Assembly (NCBI GenBank): GCA_965153455.1
Contig: OZ234493.1
Location: 17,846,213 to 17,910,212, forward strand
DNA length: 64,000 nucleotides
Direction: 5' to 3'
Source of the DNA: Sphagnum compactum
Lineage: Eukaryota
This document shows, in pieces, positions 13,262 to 58,765 of the stretch. The translations under genes were made by a program, and so were the position numbers. Position 1 is the stretch's first letter; every line of letters starts with the position of its first letter. The notes under the pieces are model-generated. The model made no database searches. It was not told the origin of the DNA and saw only the letters and a list, made by a program, of their open reading frames with translations.

Positions 13262-15119
13262 ATCACGTAAGCTCTATCATAAATTGTGATTCAATTTTTT
13301 TGGTGTGTGTTTTTGCACCAAATGTTTAAAAAAGGAGCCTTTTATTAGGTTTTCTTTTTGGCAAGGAGTCACTTTGATTGGCTCATCACACAAAATAAAA
13401 CATTAAAAAAATTTGAAACATTGGACATGGCCAAAATGGAATCTTAAGAATGGGGCTTTTGACGATGTCTAGGCATTTTATGCTCACAACTACAACTCCA
13501 AGTTGTGCCCACATACATGTGCCCCTCGCCCGCCCACCCCTCTCCCCCCCCTGGCGCACCACCCCACCCGGAACCCGTCTTAACTGATAATACATGTGTT
13601 GCCAACTAAGGAAGCAGAAGAATAAAAGAAACACACCACTGAACACCACACAAACATCTCTGACACCAACCAAAACCACCGGCATCATCATCAACAACAT
13701 CATCTCCGAGTGAGTCTGGGACACCACCACCACAACAACGCCATTGTTACGTTCCATAATGCAATAATAAGTTTTCATGTACAAACGAGCGGGCTTGGCG
13801 TAACATCATGATTGTGCAAACAAAAATTGGGTATTTAAAAAAAATTCCGCTGCAAACAAACATAGTCCAGTTGTTGTTTTTTTTTTTCCTTCAAATGGTT
13901 TTTTTTGTTCCGGAGGTCAGGGAATCATTCAACCTGTCTGTATGTCTGTCCACTCTCTCTCTCTTTCTCTTTGGTCTTGGGGTTGCGGTTGAGTGAGTCG
14001 AGGATAAAAGTTTATCAGAGGGGTCGGCCGGCCGGCCGGCGAGGGCAGTCAAAATAATTATTTCCGAACAACTTGGTGTGCGACATCCGCATGTGTATGG
14101 GCTGGCATGTAGTTGACTGCCTAAATCTAGTGTCAGGGTAAGTATTTTTAAAATGTCCACCACGAGTAAAATATCCCATCTGTGGTGGTGGACGAATGGA
14201 CGGACATACATACAGACCACCACCTTTATGCACCCAACAAGCTAACTAACCGAACACATTTCAATATGAGTATCTACAAGCAAATAGCCCTAGGTCAGCT
14301 CCAACATTGACACCGAACAAATAATTGTTTTTTCCCAAAAAAATCGATTGTTTAAATTTTCATGAAATTATTAAAAAAATTCATTTTCTTGATCTCTATG
14401 TATTGGTATCTTCAAAACAAGTAATGAAATTACTCAGACCATAGCCGGTGATAATTACGACAATTTTCAACACCTCAGGTTCATATTTTTGACAAAAGTT
14501 TGGTTTCAAAATTGAAAGGGTTATTTTATGTTGAAAGCGACCCTAGGATAAAGGTATCTATGTAGGAAATTGGCCACCAAATTTATTTTTAAAAAATAAA
14601 ATAAAATTTGGAGTTTCGAGGTGCAGCAGGAATTAGGTAGTTGGGGGGTACACAGGTAGGTGGGGTACGCCCTGGGTCACCCTATGACATAAAGGGTGAC
14701 CCAAAGCGAGGGTCACGCCCGAGAACCCTAAAAGCTTCCTATCCATCCCTAAAAGCTCCCTATTCATCCTCCGATCCCCTAACTAGTGAAGAGGAAGCTT
14801 TACTATACTACTTTACATATTCTTTGCATCGTCACCTATTGGGGTCACCTTTGAGTTCACAAGGAAGTGCTACATGTACCCCGTCCATGTACCATAGTAA
14901 ATGGTTCCCAATCTCCCCAGTTGTTAACCACCTTCGAAGATGTTGTTAGCAGTGTTGGCCGGCTATTATAATAACCAGTACGCTCACCAGTGTTAGGTTA
15001 TTACTAACCTGATTGAGAATTGGATGTTTTCTCAAACATTGGCCCAACATTGTTATGAACCCTAGTTTACCATCTATGGCACAACTACGTTCACACTCAA
15101 GGTCAATTTTTTGTTTTTT

Positions 15120-18100
15120 GGCGCCCTGATCTTAGATGTAGGTTGACTAATCGTCGCTGGTGTCAGCTGCGAAGCCAACGTTTAGCCGGTGCACTCGCAA
15201 GCAATCAGCTACTCCCCAAAGCTTCGCTGGAGCGCGACGAAAAGGCGCTGATTGATTTGGTAGATGGTCTGTCCTTGGGGTCGGTTGTGTTTGTCAAAAT
15301 GACGAATGGCGATCTTGCGGATCATGATGCGCGTCTCGGGGGCGGAGCCGTCGAACGTCTCCTAGGCCATGGCGATCAAGCACAGGCCATTGCGGGGACA
15401 CTTCTCGTCGTCGTCGGAGTGCTTCTTGGCGGTGGCGGCCTTGGCAGCGACCAGACTCTTTCCCGCCACACGATCGATGAAGGTGGGCTGCAGTGGGTGT
15501 GTAATCACAAAGTCCAGGCAGGTGTCCTGGCCGGCACAGAACATCGGGAGCAGGACGTCAGCCGGACGATCCTTGCGGCCAGCGATTAGGCCGGTCTTCT
15601 CGAGGCGGGACTTGAGACCCGCCTCATTGGCGATGATGTTCTGCACGTATGGCATGCGGTCGTAGCGGCGAATGGTGTGCGGCCCGTGCCTACAGGTCAC
15701 GGCGTGGTCGCCGTACGGGTCCATCACGTGCAGACGGCACTTCGGGCAGCAGACGACTGGGCATGTCTTCAAGCCCAATCGGAACTGGACGACACGCTGG
15801 AAGTGGCGCGGTGGCAGGGTGAGGTCGAGATAGGGCAACGGCAGGGCGGTGAAGTACCCCGACGCCTAGCCAGCACGCAAAGACTGGAGGCGCCCCTTGT
15901 TGCGCACGTTGCTATCGGCGAATAGGCGATCGTACTCGGCTTTGTTCATCAGGTGCATGATCTTGGACTGGATGCCGACGCCCAACGCCTTGGGGTTGAA
16001 CTGGAGGATCTTGTTCAGGGCAGCGAGGTTGCCCGGGTTGACACGTTGACGTAGGCACTCAAACTCAGTGCTCAGGTCGTTGGTCGGGTCCACGTCGACG
16101 TCGTTGTGGCCGAGCAGTTTGTTGACCAGGCCGACAGTGCCCAGGCGCGAGCTGACGTAGGCGGCATCGGGGTGGTCCTCGACAATGCCAATGGCCAACC
16201 CAGCCTTGCCGATCAGCAGGTGGGCCTGCTTCCATGCGAGCGGGTCGTCGATTTGGGCGGAGAGTATGGCCTCGATTGCCATCTGCCAGTTCTGGTCGGC
16301 GGTCTGCAGTTCGTTACGGATACAGTCGCTGCGCACGGTGCGGAGCAAGTGGTCGATCTTGGACGAGTTGGCGCTGCCGCATAGGATGATCATCTCAGTC
16401 TGCGAGTCGTTGATGTACGGGATGCGATCGAGGATCGACTGGATGTTGTCGATCTTGGCCTTGATGAAGTCCTGCACGTACAGGTCGGGGCCGATCGGGC
16501 AGCCGAGCGTCTTCTAGCCGTCGTTGAATGTCTTGAACTTAATCGACGTCGGGAACAGGCACCGCAGGTCGATCGCGTCGGCGTCGCTGGTGATCGACGA
16601 CTTGTACAACTGCAGGTGGAGGCCGTGCTCAGGTCCGTCGTCGACGAACATCTGGACGGCTCAACTCGTGTCATTGAGCGTGCCGACGATCTTGCCATCA
16701 TCGAGGTACCACGCGTTCAGCTGCAGGTCGGGGATGATGTTGTGCACCTTAAGGAGGAAGGCGTGCAGGGTCAGCGGGTCGCCGTGGTCGACGCCAGATG
16801 TCAGCGAGAACACGTGATCCTCGTAATACAGGCAGCCCGCCTGTGTGTAGACAGCGGCGACGAACCGCGCCATGCCCGGCAGCTTGTCGACGACTGAATC
16901 AATGGCGGTTTGGCGTAGGCAGTGCCCGTAGGCATTTTGCAGGTACAGGTCGACCTCGGCATGCGTCTCACGGTCGATGGTGTCACGCATCATGTTGGTG
17001 GCGTGCACGATCGCTTCGGCCTCGCCGGCGACACCGGCGCCGAGCTGGAATGGGTTCAGCAATTCGACGATTGCGACGCACTCCTTGTCCAGTAGGCACT
17101 TGCTGACGATGCGTCGGTCCAGCAGCATCAAGTTTAGCTGGCGGATGTCGTACTCGGTGCGGTCGGCACGTAGCGTCTCCTGGGATGCTTCCTTGATGAG
17201 TAGGATGGCCCGCTCGCCGCTAAAGTACGGGCCGCTGGCCTCCGGCCAGGCGCCCTGCGCCAGCACGTTGACGAAGCGGCTGTACGCCCGCTGAAAAGCG
17301 TTCGCCGCGTTGGCCAAACGAGTGACGACGCAATACTTATAGAACTCGACGCGGTTGCCGTCCATGCCCGGCGTGGTGCCCTTCGAGATGTTGTTGACAA
17401 TGTGCATGATCTGGCCCTTCTTGAAGTTATGGCCGGCTGATAGGTCGGCCAGCGGCTGCATTTCGGGCAGGTCGGCTTGTTGCAATTTGGATAGCAGCTT
17501 GCCGAGCGTGCGCTCGCTCGACTCCGCCATGCCGCACGACATCAGGGCACGCACAGCGCAGCCCACCCTGCCACATTGCACCAGCTTTTTTGCGCGCTTG
17601 GCATTTTGGATGATCAGTTCGTCGCCCTCGAGGCGGTACGACGGGGCAAAGATGCGAGCCGGGCGAACTTCGGCCATCGCCGACGCCCATTGGGTGGCTT
17701 GACCGCGAGGCTGCAGCCATTGGACGCAGCGGTTGACGATTTGCTTGGCGAACGACGTCGCGAGCTGGGTGCCACCGCAGATGGGCGTGCGCAGGATGGT
17801 CTTGGTGAACATGAAGTGCGATAGCCAGCGCTCCAGGTTGGTCGGCTGGTCGCAAAGCTCGTTAAGGATGGTCGTCCAGAGCTGAATGACGGCGTTGATC
17901 GCGTCCTTGGGTATGTAGTCGGACGTGGGTAGAGTAGCAGTCAGGATTTGTTCCATGCTGGGCAGGTTGAGGTTCTGCGCCAGCCCTTGCGCGCCCTCCG
18001 AGGAGTTATTGCCAAGACGATCGGCGTCGACTTGAATGGGATCGACATCATCTCGGCGCTCCTCGAGCAGACGCGTTAGGTTGGTGTTAGATTGCTGCAG

Positions 18101-18409
18101 GTTCTTGAAGATGCGACGGTGAACACGGCAACGCTCCACGTCGCCGATGCACGGGGTGTATAGCTTGGTGCAGTCGATGCACGCCTTGAGGCCCGAGAAG
18201 AGGAGGTAGTCGCTCATCAGGTCGACCAGGTAGACGTGGCTCCTAAGGGTGCTGCCGGTCGACACCCAACCCTTGATGTACGCGTTCGTCTCCCGGCACG
18301 CCAATGCCGGGCAGACGTGCTTGGTGGTGTTGTTGATGACCCTAGTGAAGACGAAGTGCTCGTCCGGGGGGGGCGGCGGCGGGGCCGCCATGGGGACGGG
18401 TCTATGCCT
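15120..18409 (-). mobile_element. CRE-clade-like non-LTR retrotransposon (zinc finger + RT + restriction-like endonuclease), near full length
   Basis: Sharp GC-rich island. RT motifs PGMDGNR, DIRQL, PFQLGAGVAGEAEAIVH, LQNAYG, GVDHGDPL, AWYLDDG and KTLGCPIG. C-terminal CPKC..D.YGDHAVTC zinc knuckle and R(Y/H)D..E..RPAD..D..K endonuclease motif. No APE domain and no LTRs. A-rich tail (T-run on +, 15107-15119). Confidence 0.9.
15182..18391 (-). pseudogene. Single CRE-type RT-RLE ORF (1070 codons) disabled by five in-frame stops
   Basis: ORFs 16661-18391, 15866-16477 and 15362-15838 share one frame. Reading through stops at 16661-63 (TGA) and 16514-16, 15866-68, 15362-64, 15209-11 (TAG) gives continuous protein ending ..QRLFVALQRSFGE*LIACECTG-TAA at 15182. 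Confidence 0.9.
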
Positions 18410-18574
18410 AAAAAAAAAATTTAAAAAAAAAAAAAAAAAAAACCTTATTTTGAGGAGAAATTCTAAACACTAACGACGACGTGCCGTGCAAGAAATTTTC
18501 GCTTTTTTTTTTTTGGGGAAAAGAAATTCCGATTTCAGACTAATAAAATAAAACCTATTACAGAAAATAATAAT

Positions 18575-18606
18575 AAATTAAATAAATAAATAAATAAATA
18601 AATAAA
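18575..18606 (+). repeat. (TAAA)n microsatellite
   Basis: Run of aataaataaataaa seen directly. Confidence 0.8.
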
Positions 18607-19560
18607 TGTTTGTTTTGGTCATTTTTGGTGAGAGGCACACCGTCATGTGTTTGAACACTTAGTCACGCGCCTTCTCCAAGTTCCTCTATGTGGCTAAATC
18701 TTAGCTTTGGTTTCTCAATGTGGCAAGCACTAATTATGACAATTTTGGCTACCTACTACTTGAAATCAGGCAATTTTTCTTAAATTTTTTTGAACTCTCG
18801 ACAATTAAAAATCTTAAAAATACTTCATTTTATCATTTTCAATTTTCAATTTTGATGTTTTGGCCCCAAAAAAAAAAGCCAGAAAAATAAGAAAGGCTGC
18901 TAAGGGCACATACTTTTAGTGTTCAGATGAAACCTGAATTGGAGTTGTTGTGTTAGATGCTATTTGAGTTTTCATCCCCCGATCAAACTCATCATCCATC
19001 CATCCATCCTTCATGGTCCACTGGTGGCTGTTGGTTGGTTCCCCCTGGGCATCCACTACACAGTTGCGCTGGGATCGGTTGTTGGGTGATTTAGAGGGAT
19101 TAAAGGGTATTTTTTTTGCTTGACATGTGACATAGTTTTTGTACCTGGGAGCAATTGTTGCACCGTCTTCTAATCCATTGTACTTGAACTTGCATTTTCT
19201 TGAATTTTTATTTTTATACTACATATATATATATTGAAGGCAAAAGGTGTAGCATGAAAGTTTGGCATGTGGTCCATATTCCTTTGACAACCCACCCACA
19301 TGCAATTTTATTTTATTTTTCCTTCTTTTCTTTCTTTTTTCAATATGTAAAATTGTATGTACACAATTCTACAAAAGAGACAAAAACTAATTATAAAAAT
19401 GGTGCAAGACTCGGCATGATGGGTGCGGGGGGTGGGGGGGGGTTGGGAGAATTCCATGTGATCCAAGTTTGAGTATTATTTTCATAACGGAGAGAGCATA
19501 AGTTGCCCAGAATTAGTCCACAAATTTTCTTTCTTATTGTCAACGGAAAGAAGTGGGATG

Positions 19561-42048: not shown

Positions 42049-42570
<522 letters not shown>

Positions 42571-56200: not shown

Positions 56201-57830
56201 TTGACACCTGACCAAATGCTGGATTTTAAAGGGCAGATGTTCAAATAACCAATTTCTCGTCAGATTTGGCATGAGATGGACCAAACTTAGGTCTAGATTG
56301 GCCAAATGTGTTTGAAACAGTACAACCTTATCTGTGACTATGTTGAACCTCTGAACGATGTTCATTCGACAGCTAGTCAGGTGCCAAAAGAAATTGGCAT
56401 ATGAACTTGGAAAACACAAGAATAAAAATACCCCATTGGTGAAATTTATTAATTAATCAGAAATTTTCCTAGCAAATTCCAGGTGCATACTCCATACTTA
56501 TCCTACTAGTAGAACTGTCATGTGGATTGTGCAAGGACAGTATTATTGGTAGGTCTAGAAAATATAGAAATTGTCGGTCTTAGAAAAGGTCGGTAAGTCC
56601 TGTATGGGGGGCCTCCCCTAACTTGAGGGTCGTATCCCAAAGGGTGTAGGCCACTGTTAGCTGGGTATTTGGTTTTCTTAATAACTATCAGTTCAGGTTT
56701 TGGGGAAAAAACACAGAATCGAAAAACTGGTGGTTCCAGTTATTTCGAGAACCTCAAAGAACTAGGGTTTATGAAAGAACGAGCCATTTTGTAGGTGATT
56801 TTTTGATTTTTTTGAAATCTCTTGAAATCTGTGGCTATATACATCAAACTGACACTTTGGTTCTTTGACAACTGTGGTGATAAACCTTAAGAACCACTCA
56901 AGGATAACCCAGTGGGGGGGTTTGATGCAATTTTTGATTCTCGCCTAATACTGGTATATGCCTGAAATTGAAGGAGAGGCTGGTGGGAAATCGCCTTCAA
57001 GTGCGTAAAGTAACGGACAAGATTATTTACGTGCAAGGTGAATGCAGGTGGAAGGAGGTCTATTGGATATACATCTTCCATGTGGGGAGTTGCTTTCAAA
57101 TACAAAGGGGGAAACCTTGCTGTACTTTAAGTTACCTAGTGGGACGATGACCCTCTTGTCAGCACATAATTTGCCCAGATGTGATCTTGAATCACCATTG
57201 ATGAGAGCTCAGATATTTCTTAGTGACAATGAAATGAAACTTAAGCAACTAGTCCCCATCTGCTCTGCCATCTTCAGACTGTTATTGTGTGGTGGTGCTC
57301 ACCAAAAAAACTTTGCTAAAACTTATATCCTTACAAAGTGTTTCACGATTCTTTGCCGTGTACATGACAATAGGTACGTCTCAAAAGGACTAGTAGGAGA
57401 GTGACCAGGATAAGCATGGAAGAAGTTTGCCCAAACAGAACAATTCAAGCTGTCCATTCGACAATGAGGTGAGGGTTACTAATTTGTAGTTCCCTACTTC
57501 TAAATATACTCCTAAAGCTAAAAATAAACTACAGTATAAACAGAATATTACACCAGAAAATCAACGGCAACGAACCCTACTGCCCAAACCAGACTAAAAA
57601 AACAAAAGGCTCCCACAACCGCCTGCCCTGAAACTCCCATTCCAAATCCAAATTATACAAAAGTCATCCACCTTGGCCAGTAAGTAAATTTTGGTACATG
57701 AATGAAAAATTCCATGTGAAAATTTATCATCCAATACCCATGTTCATCATATCCAGCCTGCTATCTCCCTCTGCCCGCACCAGTCCGCGGCCTCCCGCGC
57801 CTACAAATTGCACACTCTTGCTAGCCCCAA

Positions 57831-58173
57831 TATTCGTCCAGTCTTTTTCTCGCTAGTGCTTGTGCTTGCGTTGGTCTGTGATTCCCATCTATCATAGATT
57901 TCCAATGAGTGTGTGAGGTGTTGTATAATTTCATCACCGTCGTCCTTTATCTCCAAGTCTCTCTGTATCTCTTTGTTTGAGGTCATTTGCAAAGTCCGTC
58001 TTTGTATTCGTCCAGTCTTCTCGCTAGTGCTTGTGCTTGTGTTGGTCTGTGATTCCCATCTACCATAGATTTCCAGTGAGTGTGTGAGGTGTTCTATAAT
58101 TTCATCACCGTCCTCCTTTATCTCCAAGATTCTCTGGATCTCTTTTTGTTCGAGGTCATTTGCAAAGTCCGTC
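57831..58173. repeat. Tandem duplication, ~174-bp unit, 2 copies
   Basis: TATTCGTCCAGTCTT..CTCGCTAGTGCTTGTGCTTG..GGTCATTTGCAAAGTCCGTC at 57831 and 58005, highly similar. Confidence 0.95.
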
Positions 58174-58765
58174 GATAACAATGGCCATCAATTTCAAGCT
58201 CATCCTGGGAATCATTGGTATAATCTCTCTCCGCTACCACCACGCCAGTTTCTCGATTCCCGCCTCCAACTATCCATTCTTAAAGATATTATAATAGAGG
58301 AGTCCCCTGTGCAGCAGTTGATGATAACTGTTCCAACCACGCCCGTTAGAGATTCGGAAGACGAAATCGGAACTTAACCCGAGCGGTGGATTAAATTAAG
58401 TTCCGATTCTACCTTCCAAATCCCAAACAATCATGGGTCCTCCAATATGGACATGCTGATCATTCAGCACGCGATATAAGAGTAGGGGACCGATAAAAAG
58501 TTTGACTAACTGTACGTTCGGAATAGTGGCAAAGTCCGTATAAGAGGCAGTTCTAATTGCAGTTATTGGAACCTAACTATTGACGTTGCAGAATGATGTT
58601 GTTGGACGTCTGGATTGAGTTCTGGTTATCATGGACGCATTTCCTGTATTTATACAGCGATCATTTTCTCTATCTTTGATTATATGAGCTAGGATTTTTG
58701 GTATGGGTTCCAAAGCAGTTTTTTTAATTGTGGGCATGTTTCGTTGTTGTTGTCATGTATGTTAG

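Follow-up and report, generated by a model that had tools for sequence, protein, structure and literature searches.

A full-length but inactivated copy of a GC-rich, R2-like LINE family in the genome of the peat moss Sphagnum compactum

A stretch of 64,000 nucleotides of Sphagnum compactum DNA (contig OZ234493.1 of assembly GCA_965153455.1, positions 17,846,213 to 17,910,212; hereafter the window, in whose numbering all coordinates are given) contains a sharply bounded GC-rich island, raising the question of what kind of element this is and how it came to lie in AT-rich moss DNA. A first-pass annotation made from the sequence alone had taken the island to be a near-complete retrotransposon of the CRE clade, namely, a long interspersed nuclear element (LINE) relying on a restriction-like endonuclease (RLE), and had proposed a young family, possibly transferred from an alga, fungus or protist. 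In the analysis reported here, the observation was confirmed and the interpretation partly supported. With high confidence, positions 15118-18409, read on the minus strand, represent one copy, complete in length but dead, of an interspersed RLE (R2-like) LINE family that is present in many copies in Sphagnum.

The island is 61% GC and has sharp bounds. In 400-nt windows, GC across 15200-18399 was 0.575-0.627 throughout, as compared to 0.30-0.47 on both sides. The remainder of the window is 35.5% GC (0.355) and CpG-poor, with a ratio of observed to expected CpG (CpG o/e) of 0.33, whereas the coding frame of the element has a GC of 0.609, distributed over the three codon positions as 0.60/0.40/0.83 (third-position GC, or GC3, 0.828), and a CpG o/e of 1.14. 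The G/C-ending codons described earlier are, therefore, real. Because the amino-acid make-up of the read-through protein (P0001, with X at the stops) is ordinary (GARP residues, 0.26; FYMINK residues, 0.24), the GC-richness reflects codon choice. As a yardstick for host codon usage, an exon-like open reading frame (ORF) at 42049-42570 (+) matching RNA polymerase Rpb2 domain 6 was available (Pfam E 9.5e-42; GC 0.345); this is the only Pfam match above the curated cutoff outside the element among the 32 ORFs of at least 105 aa that were scanned. With a GC3 of 0.20 in this one host exon, as opposed to 0.83 in the element, the distance in composition between element and host pointed out by the first-pass annotation was upheld.

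The minus strand of the island carries a single 1070-codon frame, as had been anticipated, encoding the protein regions listed in Table 1. The frame truly runs past the stop at codon 1010, since full-length relatives align to residue 1056-1060. Apart from its five in-frame stops, this copy has suffered two private in-frame deletions relative to other copies, one of 21 nt near 16772-16777, which leaves reverse-transcriptase (RT) motif B without AGLLFSL, and one of 15 nt near 18231-18233, which leaves the N-terminal His motif without QTHHM; the first-pass annotation had noticed neither. Given five stops and two private deletions, one of them in the RT core, this copy is dead. The description 'near-complete' is accordingly correct for length but not for coding capacity. 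The 576-residue first segment of this very copy is the longest open stretch found for the family.

The nature of the encoded protein was addressed through its relatives. A HMMER search of 1.84 billion representatives (E<=0.001) returned 5209 relatives of P0001. Those of full length show 24-32% identity, and their alignments begin at about residue 140. RVT_1 was recognized in 15/15 relatives scanned, while Pfam detected neither an apurinic/apyrimidinic endonuclease (APE; Exo_endo_phos) nor an RNase H domain in P0001 or in those 15 relatives. Only some 140 poorly conserved residues precede the conserved core, leaving no room for an APE or RNase H upstream of the RT. When a profile built from P0001 and 37 relatives (A1) was compared with the PDB, the best match was a solved R2 protein (9nl3_A; E 2.9e-34). 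This match comprises two stretches, one covering the RT (independent E-value 1.7e-22) and the other placing the CCHC/nuclease region onto R2 residues 979-1153 (independent E-value 1.5e-8). The L1 ORF2 protein, by comparison, was matched in the RT alone (~1e-19). An AlphaFold2 model generated from A1 had a mean predicted local distance difference test (pLDDT) score of 83 and a predicted template modeling (pTM) score of 0.80, with poor prediction limited to residues 1-140. In a Foldseek comparison of this model with the PDB, ranks 1-7 were all R2 chains (query TM 0.48-0.53, over ~900-1150 alignment columns), followed by L1 ORF2p (0.31-0.39), Prp8, telomerase and group II intron RTs.

In agreement with these matches, the YLDD motif, the CCHC knuckle and the PD-(D/E)xK nuclease reported earlier are all present, as judged by motifs and by the match of the family profile to R2. 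Despite its damage, this copy retains the family invariants C882, C885, H896, C900, D564, D565 and D945, as well as the near-invariant D483 and D960; residues 909-911 read RYD here and RHD in other copies. At the N-terminus, other copies present a C-x4-C...H-x3-HH motif that was seen by eye, in a region where pLDDT is below 50. Pfam matched neither a zinc finger nor a Myb domain there in this copy, and a distant relative (P0054) gave a weak zf-C2H2 match. Judging from sequence, profile and predicted fold, the element is an RLE-type, APE-less, single-ORF, R2-like retrotransposon lacking long terminal repeats (non-LTR), as the first-pass annotation had held for its ORF plan and nuclease.

Table 1. 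Features of the element and its borders in the window.
Feature	Position	Strand	Basis or remark
Whole element copy, full length, dead, GC-rich RLE-type LINE family	15118..18409	-	GC/CpG island, end of similarity to L001, word depth
Frame of 1070 codons including stop	15182..18391 (ATG 18391 -> TAA 15184-15182)	-	Five in-frame stops, no frameshift
Putative 5' leader, <=18 nt	18392..18409	-	Shift in composition, fall in word depth
N-terminal Cys/His-rich stretch, residues 25-92, putative DNA-binding finger	18116..18319	-	By eye; His part (QTHHM elsewhere) deleted
N-terminal extension conserved in the family, residues ~140-440	17072..17974	-	Aligned just before the R2 RT core (profile start, R2 residue 411)
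RT core, residues ~440-640	16472..17071	-	Motif A D483; YLDD 562-565 (16697-16708); motif B minus 7 residues
Helical thumb/linker, residues ~641-880	15752..16471	-	Model secondary structure and whole-chain R2 fold match
CCHC zinc knuckle (C882, C885, H896, C900)	15692..15748	-	Invariant in 38/38 aligned proteins; aligned to R2 knuckle
PD-(D/E)xK restriction-like endonuclease	15365..15691	-	RYD 909-911, E931, RPAD (D945), LDFVIT (D960), Lys-rich 982-990
In-frame TGA, codon 577	16661..16663	-	Arg in 18/22 other copies; G at 16663 in all other contigs (CGA)
In-frame TAG, codon 626	16514..16516	-	Gln in 18/20 other copies
In-frame TAG, codon 842	15866..15868	-	Trp in 47/52 other copies; TAG also in L001
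In-frame TAG, codon 1010	15362..15364	-	Trp in 29/32 other copies; TAG also in L001
In-frame TAG, codon 1061	15209..15211	-	C at 15211 in most other contigs (CAG)
3' untranslated region, ~64 nt	15118..15181	-	L001 comparison, frame end
A-rich tract A6CA6 at 3' junction	15107..15119	-	Possibly mostly target DNA, not tail (organism B flank contig)
T10 AAA T20 tract, flank directly upstream of element	18410..18442	-	Reads and contigs break there

Fragments of the family were also retrieved in protein searches. Among proteins shorter than 583 aa, 347 clusters matched at E<=1e-5, with the best 120 of the 347 being 132-356 aa long and 63-87% identical. Thirteen of these 120 carry names, all of which are Sphagnum jensenii, S. 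balticum or S. troendelagicum, and lie on contigs of 16-22 Mb. The first-pass annotation had expected intact copies elsewhere, yet none was seen: the longest other ORF among the best 120 of the 347 shorter clusters is 356 aa, searches of longer proteins returned nothing above 32% identity, and a word-index search of proteins of 583-1857 aa found no match, with alignment adding two unnamed ones. A tblastn search within the window found no second copy of the element. A metagenome scan with P0001 yielded 59 pattern matches, none of which was confirmed, while a second scan yielded one locus, L001, a metagenome contig of 2085 nt that bears another copy of the element at its positions 1-1390. No relatives were found in genome contigs or viral contigs.

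Three DNA runs, as contigs, and one RNA run, as raw reads, were mapped to 14700-18800 at 85% likeness. Of the DNA runs, X8 comes from a second organism (organism B) and X6 from a different study. Summed word depth over the flank, the 3'-most bin (15111-15247) and the 5'-most bin (18262-18398) was 46, 6385 and 268 in X1, 3.7, 294 and 24.7 in X6, and 24.7, 14934 and 204 in X8, respectively. The flank depth is single-copy-like in all three runs, and high family word depth was confined to bins 15111-18398. From the 3' to the 5' end, depth fell 24- to 73-fold in X1 and X8, ratios that offer only a rough guide, as contig depth is not copy number. In two organisms, then, this is a family of high repetition and marked 5' truncation.

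The two ends of the copy are known with differing precision. The 3' boundary was placed at 15116-15118 by the second copy, L001, and by reads. The 5' boundary is 18409 at most, being set by two features only, namely, the composition change and the fall in depth between bins 18262-18398 and 18399-18535. Hence, of the very short untranslated regions claimed earlier, the 3' one stands with a length close to the 62 nt given then, while the 18 nt of the 5' leader is an upper value. Confirmation of both junctions likewise succeeded for one. The 3' junction is bridged by an independent contig (X6 record 9, spanning 14700-15156 with 0 differences), and an X1 contig entering the element by only 26 nt was not counted as bridging; the 5' junction is bridged by none. 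Upstream, 150 nt beyond the T-rich tract listed in Table 1, a (TAAA)n-like repeat at 18565-18619 is also a point at which reads and contigs break. A repeat search found no long terminal or inverted repeats flanking the element. Between 14800 and 18700, Rfam returned no match at E<=1, such that neither a hepatitis delta virus (HDV)-like ribozyme nor rRNA was recognized. Folding of the 3' untranslated region was no better than that of shuffled sequences (z -1.2 and -1.7; not significant). Just past the stop codon, a short hairpin (CGYUGG...CCAGCG) can be drawn at 15185-15215 (-) of the window and at about 1320-1350 of L001, where a C>U change in the window keeps a G-U pair; this is to be taken as a lead only.

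The sequences into which copies are inserted differ. In X8, the loose ends of 32 contigs, among the rows listed, at 15114-15121 agreed with one another to only 0.44-0.62, pointing to many different flanks, and the flank of L001 is unrelated to that of the window. An A-rich 3' junction was found in both copies examined, namely, those of the window and L001. Insertion is, therefore, dispersed, with flanks differing between copies, as in non-specific RLE LINEs. Neither junction of the element showed any sign of spliced-leader, telomere or rRNA sequence, in line with insertion elsewhere than at a specific site in spliced-leader genes or telomere repeats. Nor does the copy lie at a 28S rDNA site, the flank being single-copy A/T-rich DNA without an rRNA match in 14800-18700.

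Contigs of organism B bear on this locus. One of them, 2345 nt long, matches the flank of the window copy as far as 15117, beyond which its next 410 nt bear no likeness to the element; this contig also contains a 38-nt duplication that goes back over 14950-14987. On the other side of the element, in the flank at about 18536-18800, position 18784 is covered by a second contig with an identical mean depth (24.7). Organism B possibly possesses an empty pre-insertion site here. If so, then most of the A6CA6 tract would be target DNA rather than tail.

Comparison with other copies reveals how this one decayed. Relative to the majority of family fragments, the window copy differs at 101/1006 residues (10%), with 137 fragments differing at a median of 14.3% (range 7.3-32.4%). 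Nearly all of the residue changes are of the C>T/G>A kind, i.e., A>V, A>T, D>N, R>H, R>C, G>S and P>L, and all five stops are C>T or G>A changes. In comparison with X1 contigs, the window has A/T where the contigs have G/C at 80 + 58 = 138 places and the reverse at 25 + 27 = 52. L001 is 86.9% identical to window positions 16501-15116, with similarity ending at 15116; its element part has a GC of 0.57-0.60 and a CpG o/e of about 1, as opposed to 0.38 and 0.2-0.3 in its flank. The two copies are separated by 157 transitions and 23 transversions. When C/G is taken as ancestral, changes on the window side affected 25/266 CG, 18/181 CHG and 19/387 CHH sites. In L001, six or more additional CAG codons have turned into TAG stops. 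Both copies have TAG at codons 842 and 1010, where TGG has changed to TAG within CTGG, and a few other fragments likewise terminate there (five at residue 1009 and two at 841). With 10% of residues off the family majority and 13% of bases off L001, the youth assigned to the family by the first-pass annotation is relative.

These findings can be accommodated by the following course of events. An intact element would encode one protein of about 1069 residues, comprising the Cys/His motif, the extension, the RT, the helical linker, the CCHC knuckle and the PD-(D/E)xK nuclease. By analogy with R2, this protein may bind its own RNA, nick A/T-rich target DNA and, starting at the nick, reverse-transcribe that RNA (target-primed reverse transcription). 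Early termination would be frequent, leaving mostly 5'-truncated copies. The present copy would afterwards have decayed, chiefly through C>T/G>A transitions in CG, CHG and CHH contexts, a pattern that cytosine methylation of a silenced plant transposon would give. The architecture, multi-copy state, 5'-truncation gradient, differing flanks and transition-dominated decay to which this scheme appeals were observed, while methylation is deduced from the mutation pattern.

Several points weigh against the scheme and against the description of the island as a full-length R2-like LINE copy. No contig of X1, X6 or X8 crosses the 5' junction, and neither visual inspection nor a repeat search revealed a target-site duplication. 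With P0001 itself, Pfam returned 0 families at E<=1 and a single-sequence PDB search gave only a chance match (E 0.76). The assignment to R2-like elements accordingly draws on relatives and on a model made from their alignment. The Pfam miss is attributable to the loss of seven residues from motif B; a family fragment in which this segment is intact (P0048) gave a sub-threshold RVT_1 match (E 3.4e-4). To this can be added the roughness of depth ratios as a guide to copy number, the dependence of the methylation step on the mutation pattern and, with regard to activity, the finding that the one RNA run contributed three reads to the mapped stretch, all of them less than 95% alike. Finally, the shared TAGs may reflect either recurrent hits at a hot spot or descent from a shared broken ancestor, in which case some copies may have been made from a broken template.

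How a family so unlike its host in composition came to be in Sphagnum was considered in terms of transfer, descent and artifact. It is possible, if rather unlikely, that the element entered the Sphagnum lineage horizontally from a GC-rich alga, fungus or protist, underwent a burst and was then silenced. The gap in GC3 relative to the host Rpb2 exon can be read in this manner, although transposons often keep a composition of their own. The same holds for the lack of intermediates: the sequences 63-87% identical are family fragments only, while the best relatives outside Sphagnum are at most 32% identical (at most 30% for proteins of more than 700 aa), and in an unlabelled tree of 113 proteins, the terminal branch leading to P0001 is long (1.6, as compared to a median of 0.78) and has no close neighbor. 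Part of that length is, however, due to the decay of this copy at 10% of its residues, and with no donor or near relative found outside Sphagnum, there is no incongruent tree. Transposon ORFs are, moreover, usually masked in plant annotation, making absence from protein sets weak evidence. The nearest relatives are unnamed metagenome proteins, with the named non-Sphagnum ones, among 30 proteins looked up, being Copromyxa protea (an amoebozoan) transcripts and one with a bacterial metagenome-assembled genome label; the GARP and FYMINK values of relatives span the whole range and so offer no hint of a donor. The 2022 review PMC9033089, in its treatment of LINEs, assigns those of land plants to the L1 and RTE superfamilies only, as the first-pass annotation had said in broader terms, and this too would favor entry from outside. 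A fuller version of this account, in which the family is the first R2-like RLE LINE in a land plant, was acquired horizontally from a GC-rich microbial eukaryote inhabiting Sphagnum or its surface, gave rise to hundreds of mostly truncated copies in a burst around the divergence of the sampled species and was inactivated by methylation-driven C>T change, is more tentative yet and must be considered doubtful.

Vertical descent, by which an old green-lineage RLE LINE persisted in Sphagnum, where its latest burst took place, but elsewhere was lost or has gone unnoticed, has about an even chance of being correct. Three or more named species of Sphagnum contain the family, as do runs of two organisms, although the named species may all be close kin. 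In the Atlas cluster nearest to P0005 and P0019, labeled 'hypothetical protein', Streptophyta is the commonest phylum, with three records only; this is a weak hint of green-lineage ancestry that also speaks against transfer. RLE LINEs are, furthermore, regarded as deep-branching in eukaryotes in the account given by PMC4640811. Against this stand the absence of any relative between 32% and 63% identity in any source and a codon usage extreme for the host. The facts on origin agree equally well with transfer from an unsampled donor and with vertical survival of a single lineage, its relatives being hidden by masking in plant annotations. That the island is not moss DNA at all, i.e., a contaminant or an assembly chimera, is extremely improbable. 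Composition does jump sharply at both ends and the 5' junction does lie in a homopolymer tract that no contig crosses, yet the contig from the independent study passes through the 3' junction with no mismatch, Sphagnum contigs of 16-22 Mb carry annotated fragments of the family, L001 joins another copy to an AT-rich, CpG-poor flank like that of the window, and flank depth is single-copy-like in three runs.

Elsewhere in the window, a 128-aa ORF at 57804-58187 (-) gave a sub-threshold DUF3330 match (E 6.6e-5; 23.3 bits, cutoff 25) that is probably due to chance. At 14726-14767 (+), 350 nt from the 3' end of the element, two tandem 21-nt units, 90% alike, begin with CCCTAAA; no telomere array is present.

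By itself, the copy described here is an ordinary dead transposon. At the level of the family, however, an RLE LINE present in many copies in peat moss would extend the host range known for early-branching R2-like LINEs. It would also provide a compact single-protein element from a plant and, with codon usage opposite to that of its host, a test case for vertical persistence as opposed to transfer. Moreover, the family is a readable record of how a moss genome erodes a CpG-rich invader, through transitions at CG, CHG and CHH sites. In the literature searched, no paper describing an RLE or R2-like LINE in a bryophyte or other land plant was found; Repbase and Dfam, which lay outside that search, may hold such a family. 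The supplement to PMC4438587, with Selaginella, Physcomitrella and Chlamydomonas among its rows, has CRE, NeSL, R4 and R2 columns for plants that may bear on novelty.

The L1 and RTE LINEs of land plants are likewise non-LTR elements with A-rich 3' junctions and frequent 5' truncation. They differ from the Sphagnum element in carrying an N-terminal APE, in place of which the latter has a C-terminal restriction-like nuclease. Dualen/RandI elements of green algae and cryptophytes, in the descriptions offered by PMC5029228 and PMC4640811, resemble the present element in that their RT is followed by a CCHC finger and a restriction-like endonuclease. Dualen, however, also encodes an APE and RNase H, neither of which was found in the element or in the 15 relatives scanned, and membership in Dualen/RandI was ruled out on this basis.

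Membership in the CRE clade (CRE1/2, SLACS, CZAR, Cnl1 and MoTeR), as proposed by the first-pass annotation, appears improbable. Elements of this clade, including FoTeR, are described in PMC12857005 as combining, on a single protein of about 1100 aa, an RT and a C-terminal CCHC-RHD-E-(R/K)PD-D/E nuclease. The Sphagnum element, whose one ORF likewise joins an RT to a C-terminal CCHC/nuclease, follows the SLACS/CRE string given there in the order C-x2-C-x10-H-x3-C-x8-R(H/Y)D...E931...RPAD-x14-D. Such an order is, however, common to all RLE LINEs, and the A1 profile aligns it to R2; in addition, the spacings differ (x10 vs x7-8 and x8 vs x9-10), as does RPAD vs R/KPD. The clade is, moreover, presented as site-specific or telomeric in PMC4640811 and PMC12857005, targeting spliced-leader genes or telomere repeats, whereas the Sphagnum family is dispersed in A/T-rich DNA with differing flanks, and neither the junctions nor the Rfam search of 14800-18700 revealed spliced-leader, telomere or rRNA sequences.

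The closest counterpart in ORF plan is R2, as represented by R2Bm, R2Tg and Platysternon R2 (solved target-primed reverse transcription complexes 8gh6, 9dou, 9nl2 and 9nl3), which shares the same arrangement from the N-terminal extension through to the C-terminal nuclease. Identity in the fold alignments is at most 14%, and the Sphagnum element differs from R2 in having no rDNA target, variable flanks, no recognizable Myb domain or Pfam zinc finger, a very high GC3 and a moss host. Lacking an rDNA target, it was ruled out as a member of the R2 clade proper. HERO elements, another RLE lineage, are known from animals. Among the RLE clades enumerated in PMC4640811, namely, CRE, R2, R4, NeSL and HERO, the first four are presented as mostly target-specific and many members of HERO as not site-specific; in its heterogeneous flanks, the Sphagnum element resembles HERO, a likeness drawn by description only, while in its predicted fold and domain order it resembles R2.

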